A DNA stretch of 64,000 bases from NCBI RefSeq assembly GCF_054482525.1, contig NZ_CM137006.1; one strand, given 5' to 3'. The position numbers and the translations under genes were made by a program. A model generated the notes under the pieces. The model saw only the letters and a list, made by a program, of their open reading frames with translations, did no database searches and had not been told where the DNA came from. Of the stretch, positions 2,771-51,112 are shown piece after piece (position 1 is the first letter of the stretch; every line of letters begins with the position of its first letter).

Positions 2771-5700
2771 ATGATTCCACAGATTTCCCAGGCACCCGGC
2801 GTCGTTCAACTGGTGCTTAATTTTTTGCAAGAGCTGGAGCAACAGGGGTTTACCGGCGATACGGCGACAAGTTATGCCGATCGTCTGACAATGTCGACCG
2901 ACAACAGTATTTACCAACTTCTCCCCGATGCGGTGGTATTTCCGCGTTCAACCGCAGATGTGGCGCTGATCGCCCGTCTTGCCGCGCAGGAACGCTATTC
3001 ATCGCTGATCTTTACCCCCCGCGGCGGCGGCACCGGCACTAACGGTCAGGCGCTCAACCAGGGGATTATTGTTGATATGTCCCGCCATATGAACCGCATC
3101 ATCGAAATTAACCCTGAAGAGGGCTGGGTGCGCGTTGAGGCCGGGGTGATAAAAGACCAACTCAATCAGTACCTGAAACCGTTCGGCTACTTTTTTGCGC
3201 CGGAGCTTTCGACCAGCAACCGGGCAACGCTCGGCGGGATGATCAATACCGATGCGTCCGGTCAGGGATCGCTGGTCTATGGCAAAACGTCAGATCACGT
3301 ACTTGGCCTACGTGCGGTATTGTTGGGGGGCGATATTCTCGATACGCAACCTTTACCCGTCGAGCTGGCGGAAACGCTGGGTAAATCCAATACCACAATC
3401 GGGCGAATTTATAACACGGTTTATCAACGTTGCCGTCAGCAACGCCAGTTAATCATCGACAACTTCCCCAAACTTAACCGCTTTCTTACCGGTTACGATC
3501 TGCGTCATGTCTTTAACGATGAGATGACCGAGTTCGACCTGACGCGCATTCTGACGGGTTCAGAAGGGACGCTGGCCTTTATTACCGAAGCGCGGCTGGA
3601 TATTACGCCCTTGCCTAAAGTGCGCCGTCTGGTGAACGTCAAATATGACTCTTTTGACTCCGCGCTGCGTAACGCGCCGTTTATGGTTGAGGCGCGGGCG
3701 CTTTCGGTAGAGACGGTGGACTCAAAAGTGCTGAATTTGGCGCGGGAAGATATTGTCTGGCATTCCGTCAGCGAGTTGATTACCGATGTGCCTGACAAAG
3801 AAATGCTCGGGCTGAACATTGTGGAATTTGCTGGTGATGATGAGACGCTGATTGATGAGCGGGTAAATGCACTCTGTGCGCGGTTGGATGAACTGATTGC
3901 CAGCCAACAGGCAGGTGTGATTGGCTGGCAGGTGTGCCGCGAACTGGCGGGTGTTGAACGTATCTATGCGATGCGCAAAAAAGCTGTTGGTCTGCTTGGC
4001 AATGCCAAAGGTGCCGCTAAGCCAATTCCGTTTGCTGAGGATACCTGCGTACCGCCGGAACATCTGGCAGATTATATTGCTGAATTTCGCGCGCTGCTCG
4101 ACAGCCACGGCTTAAGCTACGGTATGTTCGGTCACGTCGACGCAGGTGTCTTGCACGTCCGTCCGGCACTGGATATGTGCGATCCGCAACAAGAGATTTT
4201 GATGAAGCAAATCTCTGATGATGTAGTGGCGCTTACCGCGAAATACGGTGGTTTGTTGTGGGGCGAACACGGCAAAGGTTTTCGCGCCGAATACAGCCCG
4301 GCGTTTTTTGGTGAGGAACTTTTTGCAGAACTGCGTAAAGTGAAAGCGGCATTTGACCCGCATAACCGACTCAACCCTGGGAAGATTTGCCCGCCAGAAG
4401 GTCTCGATGCGCCGATGATGAAAGTGGACGCGGTGAAGCGCGGTACATTCGATCGACAGATCCCCATTGCGGTACGCCAGCAGTGGCGTGGTGCAATGGA
4501 GTGTAACGGCAACGGTTTATGCTTCAACTTTGATGCCCGCAGTCCGATGTGCCCGTCGATGAAGATTACCCAGAACCGGATTCATTCACCGAAAGGGCGC
4601 GCAACGCTGGTGCGTGAATGGCTGCGTTTGTTGGCAGATCGCGGCGTTGACCCACTCAAACTGGAACAAGAGCTGCCTGAATCAGGCGTCAGTTTGCGGA
4701 CGTTAATTGCCCGCACGCGCAATAGCTGGCATGCGAATAAAGGCGAATATGACTTCTCCCACGAAGTCAAAGAGGCGATGTCTGGTTGCCTGGCCTGTAA
4801 AGCGTGTTCGACACAGTGCCCAATCAAAATTGACGTGCCTGAGTTTCGTTCTCGCTTTCTGCAACTCTATCACACCCGTTATTTGCGCCCGCTGCGCGAC
4901 CACCTCGTCGCCACGGTCGAGAGCTACGCACCGCTGATGGCACGCGCGCCGAAAACCTTTAACTTCTTCATTAACCAGCCGCTGGTGCGCAAACTCTCGG
5001 AAAAACATATCGGCATGGTTGATTTGCCGCTGCTGTCGGTCCCCTCGCTACAACAACAAATGGTGGGGCATCGCTCGGCAAACATGACGCTGGAACAGCT
5101 TGAAGCTCTCAGTGCAGAGCAGAAAGCGCGCACGGTGCTGGTGGTGCAGGACCCCTTTACCAGCTATTACGATGCGCAAGTGGTGGCGGATTTTGTCCGT
5201 CTGGTCGAAAAATTAGGTTTCCAGCCGGTGTTACTGCCATTTTCGCCAAATGGCAAAGCCCAGCATATCAAAGGCTTTCTTAATCGTTTTGCGAAGACGG
5301 CGAAAAAGACGGCGGATTTCCTCAACCGTGTGGCGAAGCTGGGGATGCCAATGGTGGGCGTCGATCCGGCGCTGGTACTTTGTTATCGCGATGAATATAA
5401 ACTGGCGCTGGGCGAGGAACGTGGCGAGTTTAACGTCTTACTGGCGAATGAATGGCTGGCAAGCGCACTTGACTCACAGCCAGTGGCTACAGTCAGCGGT
5501 GAATCATGGTATTTCTTTGGTCACTGTACCGAAGTTACCGCTTTGCCGGGCGCGCCAGCACAATGGGCCGCGATATTTGCCCGTTTTGGCGCGAAACTGG
5601 AAAATGTCAGCGTGGGTTGCTGCGGCATGGCAGGGACTTACGGACATGAAGCGAAAAACCATAAAAATTCGCTCGGGATCTATGAGTTATCCTGGCATCA

Positions 5701-6522: not shown

Positions 6523-6721
6523 TCCTGACTTAATGCCGCAATTTCGCCAAATCGACCTGGATTAACCTCCGTCCAGGTTCGATGACCTTCTTAATACTGC
6601 TTATCTACCCGCCTGATATTGTTCAAAAATAATACTAATCGCAGTTTGTGTTAAAACGGCGGGTTAGCTTTATGAGATTATTCTTATCGCCCCTTCAAGA
6701 GCTAAGCCACTGAGAGTGCCG

Positions 6722-6790
6722 GAGATAAGCGCCGGATGGGGTAGAAACCCTTAAGCCTGTGTCGCACAGACTTAAGGGTTTTCTTATTTC
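6722..6790 (+). ncRNA. rydB: Probable RydB small RNA; boundaries approximate
   Basis: K-12 places rydB between ydiH and sufA on the ydiH strand; long stem-loop 6746-6780 (AACCCTTAAG...CTTAAGGGTT) followed by TTTTCTTATTTC; the 5' end is not determinable by eye. Confidence 0.4.
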
Positions 6791-24452: not shown

Positions 24453-24758
24453 TCAGGCGAGTTTTGCCTCATTGATTTGACTCAGTGGCTCATTGACATC
24501 GAAAACTTTGGCGACAACTTCCTCAACGCCGAGATTTTTCAGTCGGGCAGTATGTTTTTCCAGATAGGCAAGGGCGCTTTTTTCATCAGTGAAAAGGTAG
24601 ATCCCACCGGCTTCGTGGTTCTTTTCACTTTCTGTCCATACCTTCCACAGAAAACCAGGTTCCTGATTAATCGACTCAGCAAGTGGTTTAAGCTGCTCAG
24701 CCATTGCGTCGCCAAATGGGCCATTAAAAGCAAAATGAAGTTGTAACAAAGTTGCCAT
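24453..24758 (-). CDS. ydhR: Putative monooxygenase-like protein YdhR, 101 aa
   Basis: 101-aa ORF beside the tRNA-Val pair as in K-12. Confidence 0.85.
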
Positions 24759-24866
24759 AGCGATTCTCCTTCTGATAACGCATACGAAGACAGTGTAAAT
24801 CTTTTAACGTATTGGATACAGAGAAGAAACAGAGGGAAAAAAGGAGAAGACCAGATTAAGAAAATC

Positions 24867-24943
24867 TGGTGCGTCCGAGTGGACTCGAACCACCGACCCC
24901 CACCATGTCAAGGTGGTGCTCTAACCAACTGAGCTACGGACGC
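24867..24943 (-). tRNA. valW: tRNA-Val (anticodon GAC), 77 nt
   Basis: Reverse complement reads GCGTCCGTAGCTCAGTTGGTTAGAGCACCACCTTGACATGGTGGGGGTCGGTGGTTCGAGTCCACTCGGACGCACCA; copy adjacent to ydhR, so by K-12 order probably valW. Confidence 0.9.
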
Positions 24944-24947
24944 AGGA

Positions 24948-25024
24948 TGGTGCGTTCAATTGGACTCGAACCAACGACCCCCACCATGTCAAGGTGGTGC
25001 TCTAACCAACTGAGCTATGAACGC
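24948..25024 (-). tRNA. valV: tRNA-Val (anticodon GAC), 77 nt, second tandem copy
   Basis: Reverse complement reads GCGTTCATAGCTCAGTTGGTTAGAGCACCACCTTGACATGGTGGGGGTCGTTGGTTCGAGTCCAATTGAACGCACCA; 4-nt spacer from the first copy; differences are compensatory in the acceptor and T stems. Confidence 0.9.
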
Positions 25025-33616: not shown

Positions 33617-33660
33617 TCCATTTCACTCCAGACCCTAACTTCAGCTCCTGCAAAATCGCA

Positions 33661-33676
33661 AGGTAAACGTTTGCCT
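33661..33676. promoter_or_regulatory. PUR-box-like palindrome AGGTAAACGTTTGCCT upstream of purR (autoregulatory operator candidate)
   Basis: Core AAACGTTT palindrome matching the PurR operator consensus, 45 bp upstream of the purR ATG. Confidence 0.55.
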
Positions 33677-33914
33677 TTACACACCTTACGCACAACAAAA
33701 GTGTTGCGGTACGCCGGAAAAACGACACGGAGCGTCAGGAAGGGGTCAATGGCCAGTACGCAAATAGTGTAAGCGTGGAATTTTGGCCGATCTTGACGAA
33801 AAGGGGAAGTGGTAAAAACACTTATCATTATAAATGACGGGAGATTTTTTCATCACAGTGTGTAAAAATGCGTAATATCACTTTTTGTGTGGTAATAAAA
33901 AAGGAGAAAACTTG

Positions 33915-34004
33915 ATGAGCACCGACCTTAAATTTTCACTGGTAACAACGATTATCGTCCTCGGTTTGATCGTGGCCGTGGGTTTGACTGCCGCGCTGCA
34001 CTGA
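33915..34004 (+). CDS. ynhF: Small membrane protein YnhF, 29 aa
   Basis: ATG 33915 preceded by AAGGAGAAAA; translation MSTDLKFSLVTTIIVLGLIVAVGLTAALH, a single TM helix. Confidence 0.7.
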   Translation: MSTDLKFSLVTTIIVLGLIVAVGLTAALH

Positions 34005-34169
34005 TTTCCTCTCGAGGGAGCGCGTTCTCCCTCGCATCTCCTTCCTGTTTGTTAGCAAAATGGCAAAAGTGTTTTCTCTTTTTGTTATTTTCATTTTTTT
34101 GTGATTGCTGTCATGCTTTCGCCACTTAAATGAATATCGCGTAATGACGCGAAGAGGTGGAGATAAGGC

Positions 34170-46801: not shown

Positions 46802-47323
46802 ATGAAACGTTTTAGTCTGGCCATTCTGGCGCTGGTTGTTGCGACCGGCGCACAAGCTGCCAGTGAAAAAGTCGAGATGAACCTCGTCACGTCGCAAGGG
46901 GTTGGGCAGTCAATTGGTAGCGTCACCATTACTGAAACCGATAAAGGTCTGGAGTTTTCGCCCGACCTGAAAGCATTACCCCCCGGTGAACATGGCTTCC
47001 ATATTCATGCCAAAGGAAGCTGCCAGCCAGCCACCAAAGATGGCAAAGCCAGCGCCGCGGAATCCGCAGGCGGGCATCTTGATCCACAAAATACCGGTAA
47101 ACATGAAGGGCCAGAAGGTGCCGGGCATTTAGGCGATCTGCCTGCACTGGTCGTCAATAATGACGGCAAAGCTACCGATGCCGTCATCGCGCCTCGTCTG
47201 AAATCACTGGATGAAGTCAAAGACAAAGCACTGATGGTCCACGTTGGCGGCGATAATATGTCCGATCAACCTAAACCGCTGGGCGGTGGCGGTGAACGCT
47301 ATGCCTGTGGTGTAATTAAGTAA
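46802..47323 (+). CDS. sodC: Periplasmic Cu,Zn superoxide dismutase SodC, 173 aa
   Basis: Start placed at ATG 46802 (MKRFSLAILALVVATGAQA signal peptide) with GGAGG RBS; Cu/Zn ligand His clusters. Confidence 0.93.
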   Translation: MKRFSLAILALVVATGAQAASEKVEMNLVTSQGVGQSIGSVTITETDKGLEFSPDLKALPPGEHGFHIHAKGSCQPATKDGKASAAESAGGHLDPQNTGKHEGPEGAGHLGDLPALVVNNDGKATDAVIAPRLKSLDEVKDKALMVHVGGDNMSDQPKPLGGGGERYACGVIK

Positions 47324-49336
47324 TTAAGAGGCCAGCGTACCTTGCGGTGGTGCTTGCTCAAGTTGCGAAAGCGAGCAGTACAGCCGCCAGACAATTGCCG
47401 CCAGCTCACGGGCAGCAGGTTGATGATGACGGGCAAGGCTGTCACAAATCCGCTGTAATTCTTCAAGTGTGGCCGCCAGTGATTTTTGCTGAACGCCACG
47501 CTCACTCATCACTCCGCGCAACAGTGAAATACAGTTATCCCGTACTCGTGATAACGGATCGGAACGCGATTCCCAGTCGCGTAATTGCCAGACAACATGA
47601 GAACAGTTCAGCAGCACTACACCCCAGCGTAATAACCAACGGCGAGCCAGCGCATCCTGGCTGTTACTCAACTGACTGACGTGATGATAAGTGAGCGATT
47701 CAAATTCGCTTTCACTCAGTGTTGGATGGCGGCTTAGTTGATCGACAAAATCCCGGCGCAGCGCGCGAATATGACGACGGCTTTTACGAGCATCCGACCC
47801 TGGATGCAAAATGGCGAACGCTAACCACGCCAACGCGACGCCAACGATTTTTGCCAAATTATCGTTAAGAAAATCAGCAAAATCATACACCGGGGGATTA
47901 GTGACAGCGATAAACGAACCCATAAAAACAATCAGTTGCCCCCACAGTGCGGCAAATTTGGGCATCTGCAATTTAAGAAGCTGTATCGTCGCCAGCAGTG
48001 GAAAGAGAAACAGTAAAAATTGCCACAGATCGCTAATCTGGACCATCAGGCCAAATTTGACCACAAAGCTGAATAGCGAAAGTAACACCAGCGTACGCAT
48101 CAGTAGTGACAACGACTTAAACGGAGCTGCGACGGCGGAGTAGAGTACGCAGCTAATCGCTGCCAGCGTTAATGCATTGGCACCGGCATCCCATTGCGAA
48201 GCAATACTCCATGTGCCAATCATCATCAACGTACAAAATGTACGCAGTCCGCTCCACATAGCTTCGGCGTTATCGGTATGACGAGCCAGGCCGGATGTCC
48301 GTGGGAGTCTGGTATGATCATCCACACCGCTTTGCAGACGATGTAATTCCTGACTACTTTGCAGATAAATGCGGCAAAAATAACGTAGTCGCTGCCAGAA
48401 GGCGACGTGCCGGTAGTCGGCGACGTTGGTCGGGCGTAGCGGGGCGATAATACGTGCGACGGTGTAAACATCTGTTTGCGAACTGGCGAGCGCCGTCAGC
48501 AACTGCTCGAGAATTTCTCGTGTGGTACCTGGCGGTGAGGGCCAGTTGAGCAACATACGTCGCAGGCTGGAGATGACACTGGTCATACGTAATTGCTGGT
48601 GGAGTAGCGCATTAAGGCGCGCGTTTTGCTGGCGAAAACGATAGTGGCTCCAGAAAGCCTGGATACGCAGCAAATTCATGGTCAGTATCTGCCCAATCAC
48701 CCCTTCATGTGCTGCACGAATGGCATCGGTTGTTTCAGGCTGCCAGAGTAAACTGGCATGTTCCAGCAATCGGGCGTGCATGTTTTTCAATGCGGTTAAA
48801 AGGGCTGTAGCATCGGAACTGCTCGGCAGGATCATCATCATCATGCCGCCGCACAAAATACCGACTATCACCTCGCAAACGCGCGCCTGAGCGATATCCC
48901 ACAGCTGGCTGGCCTCAGTAATATTAACCATCGGAAAGGCGATGATGGCAGCCGTGTAGCCCGCCAGTTGAAATGCATACGCGACGTTATTCGTGAAGTG
49001 CGCACAGGCCCAGGTACAAAAGCCAAGCCACGCCGCCATGCTCAAAAGAAAAAACCACGGCTCATTAAGTGTATGTCCGGCAAGAAGCAGTGCCGCAATG
49101 GCTCCGAGCAAACTGCCAGCGATGCGTCCGAGGCTTTTGCTGATGACACCGCCAACGGTGGGAAAGCTAACCACGGCAGCCGAGGTCATCGCCCAATAGG
49201 GCTCATCAAGGTTCAAATAATAGGCAACCGTCAGTGCCAGACACATGGCAATGGTATTGCGTAACGCATAACGCCATTGCGCCAGCGTGGCCCTGAACCA
49301 GGGCAAATTGCGCAAGGACCATGACGATGCGTTCAT
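47324..49336 (-). CDS. ydhK: FUSC-family inner-membrane efflux protein YdhK (AaeB paralog), 670 aa
   Basis: 670-aa membrane ORF; its start overlaps the ydhJ stop by 1 nt. Confidence 0.88.
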
Positions 49337-50193
49337 TATTGACCTACGGCAATGCTACAGGTGGTGCCCGACACCAGCGTGACATCGCCTGGGACTTTAT
49401 CCAGCGCAAAGCGGACCGGAACACGTTGGGCGAGGCGAACCCAGGGGACGTTAGGTTTCACATCCGGAATAAGGCTTGAGTCACTTTCAACGCTCTGATC
49501 ATAAATCGCCCGACCGATGCTGGAAACGTGACCCTGTAACGTTTTGTTATCACTATAGAGGGTTATTTGTGCTGGTGCACCTTCGCGGATATGGCGCAAC
49601 TTGGTTTCTTCAAAATAACCAATGACGTAAAACGAGTGGCTGTCGACAAGGGCAAACAGCGGTTTCCCGGTGTCGGCGTAATCGCCGATGCGGGTAGTAA
49701 GATTAGTCACCCATCCGCTCACCGGGGCGCGAATTTCCGTTTGCTCCAGTTGCCATTGTGCCTGTTTCAGCGTCGCCTGTGCGGCATCAACACCGGCCTG
49801 CATCGTTTTAACATTGAGGTTAGCGGTATCGAGTTCTTCGGCAGAAATAAAATTTTGTGAGAGATGACGACGACGATTCGCTTCGTTATTGGCTTTTGCG
49901 AGGTCAGATTGCGCTTTCGCCAGCTGAGCCTGTGCGTTCAGCTCGGCGATCTGAAAGGGCGTTTTATCGATCGTGAGCAGAAGATCCCCCGCGTTAACCA
50001 GCTGGTTGTCTTTTATATTCAGCTCAACAATACGTCCCGACACCTGTGGGGTGATAGAAACCTGTTCTGCGCGTATTTTCCCGTCGCGTGTCCACGGAGA
50101 TTGCATGTAATAATTCCACAGCCACCATCCGGCAAGAACCGCAACTACCGCTACAATGATTGTTGAGAAATACTTAATTGTTTTAATTGACAT
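49336..50193 (-). CDS. ydhJ: HlyD-family membrane fusion protein YdhJ (AaeA paralog), 285 aa
   Basis: Start placed at the internal ATG ([26 protein letters not shown]...); coiled-coil MFP-like; the ORF call over-extends by 14 codons. Confidence 0.88.
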
Positions 50194-50195
50194 AG

Positions 50196-50432
50196 TTACC
50201 ACGCAATCAGTATTGCCAGGGCAAGGCAAACGCAAATCGCAAACAGCGATAAATCCATTAACAAGGGATGCCAGATGTCACCGGCGTAGATCCAGCCACG
50301 AAGCAGGCGGTGTACGACAAGCCAGATGACGAATCCAAACGCGAAGGCTTTGAAAAACGGAGGAAAGTAGACGGACGCACCGAACACCAGATCTTGTAAG
50401 GGCAATCCTGTTGCATTGAGCATAAACTTCAC
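50196..50432 (-). CDS. ydhI: DUF1656 small membrane protein YdhI (AaeX paralog), 78 aa
   Basis: 78-aa two-TM ORF directly upstream of ydhJ. Confidence 0.85.
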
Positions 50433-50626
50433 AAAGTAGATTCCTTTACGACCGAATATATTGCGTTAGATTAATAAATATTCTTTAAGTGCGAAAAATT
50501 TACGCGCAATTTCTGAAAAATATGTCTGACGGTAACCAAATGCAGCAATACATTTGTTTTAGCAATACAATTGCTGCACACTATTCTAAAAGCCGCATAA
50601 TATCTTAGCAAGCTAATTATAAGGAG

Positions 50627-51067
50627 ATGAAATTGGAATCGCCACTAGGTTCTGATCTGGCACGGTTGGTGCGCATATGGCGTGCTCTGATAGACCATCG
50701 CCTGAAACCGCTGGAGTTAACACAAACCCATTGGGTTACGTTACACAATATCCATCAGTTACCTCCAGACCAGTCGCAAATTCAACTGGCAAAAGCGATT
50801 GGCATCGAGCAGCCATCACTGGTCCGTACTCTGGACCAACTGGAAGAAAAAGGGTTAATTTCGCGTCAAACTTGTGCCAGCGATCGTCGGGCTAAACGTA
50901 TTAAACTGACGGAAAAGGCAGAGCCGCTGATCAGCGAAATGGAAGCTGTTATTAACAAAACCCGCGCGGAAATTTTACATGGCATCTCCGCAGAGGAACT
51001 GGAACAACTGATTAAGCTCATCGCAAAACTTGAGCATAATATCATTGAGTTACAGGCCAAAGGGTGA
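50627..51067 (+). CDS. slyA: MarR-family transcriptional regulator SlyA
   Basis: Winged-helix MarR ORF; the K-12 annotation (144 aa) probably starts at TTG 50633 (M-E-S-P-L-G) rather than ATG 50627. Confidence 0.92.
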
Positions 51068-51077
51068 AATGAAGGGG

Positions 51078-51103
51078 CGTGTGGTCAGTAACCTGACCAC
51101 ACG
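51078..51103. terminator. Hairpin between convergent slyA and slyB (CGTGTGGTCAG-taac-CTGACCACACG)
   Basis: 11-bp perfect stem; weak flanking U-tracts. Confidence 0.55.
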
Positions 51104-51112
51104 CAAACTTAT

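Follow-up and report, generated by a model that had tools for sequence, protein, structure and literature searches.

What the ydhIJK operon of Escherichia coli exports, and which signals set its expression, is the question raised by positions 47324-51067 of a 64,000-nucleotide stretch of DNA (contig NZ_CM137006.1, NCBI RefSeq assembly GCF_054482525.1; hereafter the window), where three closely packed genes for a small membrane protein, a periplasmic adaptor and an inner-membrane transporter stand back to back with slyA, the gene of a MarR-family regulator. We find that ydhIJK is very probably a core, SlyA-linked paralogue of the aromatic carboxylate efflux system AaeXAB, which would work by expelling aromatic carboxylate anions from the cytoplasm under the control of SlyA and, additionally, of sigma-E. 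The anatomy, homologies, operator, promoter motif and predicted fold on which this answer is built were determined in this analysis. The locus itself is real, ordinary and already known, in that its kinship, its control by SlyA and its first substrate, fusaric acid, have all been published, and as a finding an annotated core locus of E. coli matters little.

The three efflux genes, assigned from their open reading frames (ORFs) and Pfam domains, lie on the minus strand in the order ydhI-ydhJ-ydhK, with ydhI as the first gene of the operon. ydhI (50196-50432) encodes a DUF1656 small membrane protein of 78 residues from a GTG start located nine bases downstream of AAGGAA, ydhJ (49336-50193) a membrane-anchored periplasmic adaptor of the HlyD/EmrA/AaeA type with 285 residues from its ATG, and ydhK (47324-49336) an inner-membrane transporter of the FUSC family with 670 residues. 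The junction of ydhI and ydhJ reads TAA-CT-ATG, a gap of 2 nt, while that of ydhJ and ydhK reads CAA TAATG AAC, where the last A of the TAA stop codon is also the A of the ATG, an overlap of 1 nt. The longest ORF of ydhJ reaches a TTG at 50235 and would overlap ydhI; RefSeq annotates the ATG instead. On the plus strand, slyA (50633-51067, by RefSeq and NCBIfam) encodes a MarR-family regulator of 144 residues from its annotated TTG, and its divergence from ydhI leaves a regulatory spacer of 200 bp (50433-50632). An earlier note, drawn from the letters of the window alone, had named these four families, the overlap, the gap and the divergent upstream position of slyA, and Pfam, the junction sequences and the course of slyA to its end at 51067 bear all of this out; only the start of slyA differs, trivially, since the note had used an ATG at 50627, which is in frame and two codons 5′ of the TTG that RefSeq annotates. 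Between these two starts the TTG at 50633 fits better, because the Shine-Dalgarno-like AAGGAG ends 7 nt before it and just 1 nt before the ATG.

ydhIJK is an ordinary chromosomal operon of the E. coli core genome. Of the 5426 complete E. coli genomes searched, 5425 carry the locus, 5409 of them with a coverage of at least 80%, and the annotation there is always ydhK/ydhJ/ydhI/slyA; YdhK is 99% identical to its K-12 counterpart, and the region as a whole is 99.9% identical to that of E. coli PCN033. Two side observations accompany this survey. An identity of at least 99% to 47324-51067 was reached in just 4 of the 5425 genomes, with the bulk at 95-99%, and the window therefore comes from a less-sampled lineage near PCN033. 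Additionally, one of the E. coli matches to the locus lies on a plasmid, and a single complete genome is without the locus.

The kinship with AaeXAB is detectable in each of the three proteins. When aligned with the K-12 subunits, as the earlier note had proposed as a check, YdhI was 33% identical to AaeX over 51 residues (E 1e-5), YdhJ was 41% identical to AaeA over 282 residues (E 2e-69), and YdhK was 24% identical to AaeB over about 520 residues (E 3e-27), and in every case the corresponding AaeXAB subunit was the best relative in E. coli. The homology of YdhJ to AaeA and of YdhK to AaeB had already been stated (PMC12506092). The top NCBIfam models were likewise those of AaeB (NF007916), AaeA (NF007850) and AaeX (NF008615) for YdhK, YdhJ and YdhI; however, the scores of 119.6, 246.3 and 21.4 bits fall far under the equivalog cut-offs of 870, 400 and 82, so that the three proteins are not AaeXAB proper and YdhIJK is to be regarded as its paralogue, not its orthologue, which is the status the earlier note had given it. 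The architecture that the note had called AaeXAB-like is shared as well: both loci have the order DUF1656, short HlyD adaptor and FUSC on one strand, tight spacing (gaps of 7 nt and 5 nt in aaeX-aaeA-aaeB against the 2-nt gap and 1-nt overlap of ydhIJK) and a divergent regulator gene, and neither has a linked gene for an outer-membrane factor. They differ in the regulator, which is the LysR-type activator AaeR at aaeXAB and the MarR-type, hence not LysR-type, SlyA at ydhIJK, in the additional sigma-E control of ydhIJK, and in the known substrates, as given below. Among related loci, one with a YdhK identity of 62% keeps the arrangement MarR(SlyA)-DUF1656-HlyD-FUSC, followed by gloA and rnt, and in a relative at 50% YdhK identity, DUF1656-HlyD-FUSC is followed downstream by a LysR gene.

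The spacer between slyA and ydhI carries the sequence evidence for SlyA control. It is 100% identical to that of E. coli K-12 and therefore the experiments made in K-12 apply directly to the window, where the regulator itself scores 277.6 bits against the SlyA equivalog model NF002926 (cut-off 120) and thus belongs to that family. A search of the spacer for SlyA-type palindromes, another of the checks proposed earlier, returned the exact high-affinity consensus TTAGCAAGCTAA at 50605-50616 on the plus strand, 10 nt before the ATG at 50627 and 16 nt before the TTG of slyA. This is the sole exact match in the 64-kb window, in which, by our own arithmetic, about 0.008 exact occurrences of a 12-mer would be expected by chance on both strands, and at another locus, L009, its reverse complement occupies the corresponding place upstream of an orthologue of slyA (79% identical). 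SlyA-like 12-mers with at most two mismatches were not above chance across the window (3 found, 5.2 expected), and weight is therefore given only to the site that matches exactly, to where it lies and to its being conserved. An exact consensus inside the fragment that K-12 SlyA binds marks the spacer as a probable direct SlyA target, with the site nearer to slyA than to ydhI.

SlyA binding, repression, its relief by ligands, the fusaric-acid phenotype and sigma-E induction are known from the literature. Electrophoretic mobility shift assays (EMSA) have shown SlyA to bind the 200-bp slyA-ydhI fragment of E. coli K-12 (Curran et al., 2017; PMC5797941). For Salmonella, an in vitro repression of ydhI by SlyA of about 19-fold was reported, which falls to 3.2-fold with 2 mM salicylate, and the salicylate-sensitive footprint of SlyA covers a 12-mer with 75% of the consensus near the −35 element belonging to the transcription start site (TSS) of ydhI; the linkage of slyA and ydhIJK across the Enterobacteriaceae was analysed in the same work (Will et al., 2019; PMC6401476). 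RNA sequencing placed ydhIJK among the SlyA-repressed genes, and SlyA was found to be inhibited by 4-hydroxybenzoate (4-HB) and 2,3-dihydroxybenzoate (2,3-DHB) (Will and Fang, 2025; PMC12506092). In Klebsiella, mutants of the slyA orthologue kvrA had 45- to over 100-fold more YdhJ protein (bioRxiv preprint 10.1101/845925). This mode resembles that of MarR at marRAB and of EmrR (MprA) at emrAB, wherein a local MarR-family regulator, encoded divergently from or adjacent to the efflux operon, is released from a palindromic operator by aromatic carboxylates such as salicylate to derepress efflux (PMC6401476); SlyA differs from both in being also a global counter-silencer of H-NS and in that the direction of its effect on ydhIJK in E. 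coli is ambiguous.

Further elements were observed in the same spacer. SlyA-like sites with 9 of 12 matching positions occur at 50559-50570 on the plus strand (TTAGCAATACAA) and at 50466-50477 on the minus strand (TTAGATTAATAA when read on the plus strand), the latter overlapping the −10 element and spacer of the sigma-E-type promoter described below, where it may have a regulatory function. An inverted repeat, TGCAGCAAT (50541-50549) and ATTGCTGCA (50570-50578), 20 nt apart, encloses the site at 50559-50570, and in the same stretch, 50541-50578, the direct repeat AGCAATACAwTTG occurs twice with a 17-nt spacing; these repeats go beyond the SlyA consensus and might be recognised by oligomers of SlyA or by a different factor. 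A sigma-70-like promoter candidate toward ydhI (50583-50611, minus strand, TTGCTA-17-TAGAAT) has its −35 hexamer inside the SlyA palindrome. Sigma-70-like matches in the region were not enriched over shuffled sequences (3 found, 5.1 expected), and this candidate is therefore a weak lead.

Based on these findings, we propose the following working of the module. Transcription of ydhIJK would start in the 200-bp spacer, where SlyA would bind the exact consensus and possibly weaker sites, and SlyA would repress the operon, as in related enterobacteria, until salicylate, 4-HB or 2,3-DHB releases it from the DNA, while a sigma-E-type promoter directly upstream of ydhI would add induction by envelope stress. 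YdhK would move aromatic carboxylate anions out of the cytoplasm, most likely through one central anion path between its two transmembrane (TM) bundles and driven by the inside-negative membrane potential; YdhJ, anchored through its N-terminal helix, would act as the periplasmic adaptor, and YdhI, a two-helix protein always encoded with YdhJ and YdhK, could be an accessory membrane subunit. The transport mechanism, the roles of the subunits and the natural substrate are what we infer here.

As regards the substrate, AaeAB exports 4-HB, 6-hydroxy-2-naphthoate and 2-hydroxycinnamate according to the citations in PMC12506092; for YdhIJK the only link so far is to fusaric acid: Salmonella ydhIJK mutants grow late in its presence, and slyA mutants grow better (PMC6401476). 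It is nevertheless a serious contender, somewhat short of an even chance, that YdhIJK serves chiefly to relieve metabolism of endogenous aromatic carboxylates such as 4-HB and 2,3-DHB, by which it would close a homeostatic loop on SlyA activity, and not primarily as a pump against xenobiotics or fusaric acid. The closest paralogue, AaeAB, exports 4-HB and its kin and clears toxic metabolic intermediates (PMC12506092; PMC8277102), two of the presumed substrates are the very compounds that inhibit SlyA, Will and Fang favour the export of an unidentified endogenous compound as the primary function (PMC12506092), and the operon belongs to the core genome of E. coli, a species that rarely encounters toxins of Fusarium. 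However, ydhIJK has been repeatedly lost in other Enterobacterales with slyA kept (PMC6401476), which argues against an essential feedback partner, and the sole phenotype so far was obtained with exogenous fusaric acid.

The second alternative concerns the route across the envelope. YdhJK might recruit TolC or an outer-membrane factor encoded elsewhere to form a tripartite, envelope-spanning pump like EmrAB-TolC or MdtNOP, a possibility that we lean against. YdhJ is without question an adaptor of the HlyD/CusB type: the Pfam domains HlyD_D23, HlyD_3 and Biotin_lipoyl_2 all scored above their cut-offs, the model TIGR01730 (RND_mfp) was matched with 133 bits (cut-off 94.9), hydropathy gave one N-terminal TM helix at about residues 8-26, and the layout of single anchor, lipoyl domain, short coiled-coil hairpin and beta-barrel comprises every part expected of a membrane fusion protein. 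Its relatives in the PDB include EmrA, AcrA and MacA, all of which dock TolC-type channels, and related FUSC systems bring their own outer-membrane factor, mdtP beside mdtNO and Bucl8 with FusCDE (PMC7682875). On the other side, no outer-membrane factor gene was found in or next to ydhIJK or in the three related loci examined, and the partner of the paralogue is listed as 'AaeAB-?' (PMC8277102). Additionally, YdhJ is without about 60 hairpin residues that MdtN has, and the YdhK model is without a large periplasmic domain, so that a reach to TolC appears uncertain.

Comparison with the pumps that do carry an outer-membrane factor sets YdhIJK apart from them. In MdtNOP (SdsRQP), too, the genes of a FUSC-family transporter (MdtO) and of an HlyD-type adaptor (MdtN) share an operon with translational coupling, and MdtN is 34% identical to YdhJ, with the additional hairpin residues mentioned above; however, MdtO aligns with just one repeat of YdhK (23% identity, E 6e-6), and the system has its own outer-membrane factor. 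By sequence comparison, MdtNOP thus ranks as much more distant from YdhIJK than AaeXAB. YtcA, the small upstream protein of mdtNOP, was considered as an equivalent of AaeX and YdhI and rejected, as it has no similarity to YdhI. The fusaric-acid resistance pumps Bucl8-FusCDE of Burkholderia and FuaABC of Stenotrophomonas, compared here by description only, likewise have a fusaric-acid phenotype and are induced by fusaric acid and by para-hydroxybenzoic acid (pHBA); Bucl8-FusCDE consists of a FUSC protein, the small DUF protein FusD of 67 residues and the HlyD-type FusE of about 290 residues beside its channel (PMC7682875). Unlike ydhIJK, these systems have a dedicated outer-membrane factor (Bucl8 or the FuaABC component), a LysR-type regulator and the gene order outer-membrane factor, FUSC, DUF, adaptor.

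YdhI belongs to DUF1656 (PF07869, 53.9 bits, cut-off 26.5) and has two hydrophobic helices by hydropathy. An observation on the small subunit was made in a metagenomic locus, L008, whose YdhK is 28% identical: an uncalled ORF of 66 residues (3906-4106, plus strand) with YFPPF and WHP motifs stands just before the adaptor gene. The FPP and WHP motifs are common to YdhI, AaeX and this ORF, and, as it was left uncalled, annotation probably misses DUF1656 partners next to FUSC/HlyD pairs.

How YdhK moves its substrate is approached through its family and fold. It matches the Pfam FUSC family (PF04632) with 469.7 bits (cut-off 30.9, E 2.4e-140) over profile positions 1-658 of 660, and is accordingly a full-length member well above the curated cut-off. 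The protein is internally duplicated: its N-terminal and C-terminal halves are homologous in hhalign (probability 95.6%, E 1.1e-8), a repeat visible only in profile-profile comparison, as plain BLASTP of the halves gave nothing significant. An exhaustive search supplied 87 full-length relatives, which were aligned, and the structure of YdhK was predicted; the all-helical AlphaFold model has a pLDDT of 94 and a pTM of 0.92, and in it membrane bundles at about residues 18-170 and 356-510 are each followed by a helical cytoplasmic region. Clusters of hydrophobic residues lie at about 20-170 and 360-510, and hhalign, hydropathy and the model thus agree on a duplicated FUSC architecture.

When the model was compared with the PDB by Foldseek, the best nine matches were all ALMT1 or ALMT9, with a probability of 1.00, TM-scores of 0.45-0.53 (ALMT-normalised, per half) and identities of 13-17%, and other folds, including the major facilitator superfamily (MFS) and further transporters, scored at noise level. 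The family profile of YdhK supported this homology with E-values from 8.4e-8 to 9.3e-5 (ALMT9 8.4e-8, ALMT12 3.9e-6, ALMT1 1.5e-5), which required the profile, in that a search of the PDB with the single sequence gave a marginal match to ALMT12 only (E 0.25). The motif WAxxTVxxV...G..(S/C)K...R..GTL in the first TM helices, around K67 and R71, is common to the YdhK family and the ALMTs. No solved bacterial FUSC structure was among the PDB sequence or profile matches to YdhK, and a literature search for a cryo-EM structure of FUSC or AaeB found none, its only relevant return being the Bucl8 paper. Solved structures with a relationship to YdhK are thus confined to the plant ALMT/QUAC proteins (AtALMT1, AtALMT9, GmALMT12). 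As homodimers, these conduct anions of organic carboxylates. Each ALMT protomer is built from a single TM domain and a single helical domain in the cytosol and YdhK has two such repeats per chain, which suggests that YdhK is a single-chain pseudo-dimer of the ALMT fold. On the predicted model, YdhK is best read in this way, and we put this forward without a claim of priority for the FUSC-ALMT kinship. The two also differ in that the ALMTs are eukaryotic gated channels without an adaptor and without a small subunit.

The third alternative is that YdhK is a proton-coupled, alternating-access antiporter and not a potential-driven, channel-like exporter, the likeness to ALMTs being a shared scaffold only, and we consider this doubtful. 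Efflux systems with an HlyD adaptor are generally energised transporters (general knowledge; reviewed in PMC8277102), and the fold similarity at the TM-scores given above is moderate. Against it stands that the only significant solved relatives, by sequence and by fold alike, are the ALMT anion channels, with the MFS and other transporter folds scoring as noise. A potential-driven anion path in YdhK therefore remains the mechanism that we prefer. Regarding the sequence of YdhK itself, residues invariant or nearly so in the 87 relatives (about 20-60% identity) are concentrated in the N-terminal repeat (P46, G62, K67, R71, G74, G78, W103 and C107, and further Y120, L124, G126-Y127-T128, R152 and G159), while the C-terminal repeat retains few (A359, W377, W382, G385 and N491), and this concentration suggests that the halves are functionally asymmetric.

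The last alternative assigns the E. coli operon chiefly to envelope stress under sigma-E, with SlyA as a weak activator or anti-H-NS factor and no repression of the MarR type, which we regard as unlikely. A sigma-E-type promoter candidate (cGCACTT-N16-TCTAA, 50466-50493, minus strand) was found directly upstream of ydhI by motif scan. With its −35 element GCACTT at 50492-50487, a 16-nt spacer and its −10 element TCTAA at 50470-50466, it differs from GGAACTT-N16-TCnAA at two −35 positions and was still counted as a promoter of the sigma-E regulon type; a sigma-E-dependent transcript would, from this motif, start about 25-30 nt upstream of the GTG of ydhI, at about 50457-50461 (K-12 about 1720996-1721000). 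PydhIJK has been treated as a known sigma-E start, and ydhIJK RNA rises about 20-fold upon sigma-E induction and stays at that level (PMC7075262), while another study took ydhK as a member of the sigma-E regulon and saw lower viability upon its overexpression (PMC2685091); the main text of PMC1312014, checked for a mapped sigma-E TSS, has no mention of ydhI. In addition, the spacer is 68% A+T over 50433-50626, typical of H-NS targets, and overproduction of SlyA from multicopy slyA gave 2.2-fold more ydhIJK RNA in K-12 (PMC5797941). However, the response of the TSS to sigma-E was called weak and RNA stabilisation was invoked for the rise (PMC7075262), the 2.2-fold rise is small and was obtained with slyA in multicopy, and species in which repression is strong have conserved both SlyA and the operator. 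Control by SlyA repression, with sigma-E as an added input, is thus the reading that we retain. Two further reports touch on the operon: a table of candidate fitness genes of uropathogenic E. coli includes ydhK transposon insertions (PMC3855560), and mutants of aminoacyl-tRNA synthetases show raised ydhIJK expression (PMC10971285).

Several points nevertheless weigh against the proposed working as a whole. The physiological function of YdhIJK 'remains to be determined' according to Will and Fang (PMC12506092), and the phenotype with fusaric acid amounts to delayed growth, seen in Salmonella only. The lack of an outer-membrane factor gene at the loci examined counts here as well. What supports an ALMT-like channel mechanism is a structure prediction, with the TM-scores of 0.45-0.53 and identities of 13-17% noted above. 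As for regulation, the exact palindrome lies 173 bp from the start of ydhI and beside slyA, and may therefore mainly serve slyA autoregulation; the 9/12 SlyA-like sites are leads and not evidence, with 39 such matches in the window; and the 2.2-fold rise of ydhIJK RNA with multicopy slyA, set against the repression in Salmonella and Klebsiella, leaves the sign of regulation in E. coli unsettled.

The most far-reaching combination, that YdhK is a channel-like, potential-driven and TolC-independent carboxylate exporter that vents SlyA's own ligands in a homeostatic loop with sigma-E as a second input, is quite improbable when taken together; if it were true, the slyA-ydhIJK loop would set the cytoplasmic level of SlyA ligands and thereby tune the SlyA-dependent counter-silencing of virulence genes. 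An anti-phage role was rejected, as the PADLOC defence models had no match in any of the three proteins. The statement of the earlier note that substrate and regulation are not defined has largely been overtaken: the regulation and the fusaric-acid sensitivity of a ydhIJK mutant are published, and only the physiological substrate is still acknowledged to be undefined (PMC12506092). Likewise, the checks that the note proposed, namely alignment with AaeXAB, the SlyA palindrome, dependence on SlyA and sensitivity to aromatic acids, are either already published or confirmed here. Virulence genes are under the control of SlyA, and aromatic metabolites inactivate it; identifying the compound exported by YdhIJK would therefore reveal whether there is a feedback from the pump to SlyA activity.

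The borders of the module were observed as follows. On the ydhK side, the convergent stop codons of sodC (plus) and ydhK (minus) abut as TAATTA (47321-47326) with zero intergenic bases, as also in K-12, which leaves no room for a terminator, so that each transcript must either terminate within the neighbouring gene or continue antisense to it. On the slyA side, the terminator scan found a bidirectional terminator hairpin with a perfect 12-bp stem (GCGTGTGGTCAG/CTGACCACACGC) at 51077-51104, scored as a terminator on both strands, in the 45-bp gap between the convergent slyA and slyB, where it bounds the module. A scan of 47-51 kb with Rfam gave no RNA family. Elsewhere in the window, gathering-level Rfam matches at 977-1084, 6689-6749, 24742-25024 and 33617-34007 comprise RprA (minus strand), rydB (plus strand), a pair of minus-strand tRNAs with an overlapping HPnc0260 'antisense' match on the plus strand, and STnc550, whose match is full-length, on the plus strand, with 396 bits.

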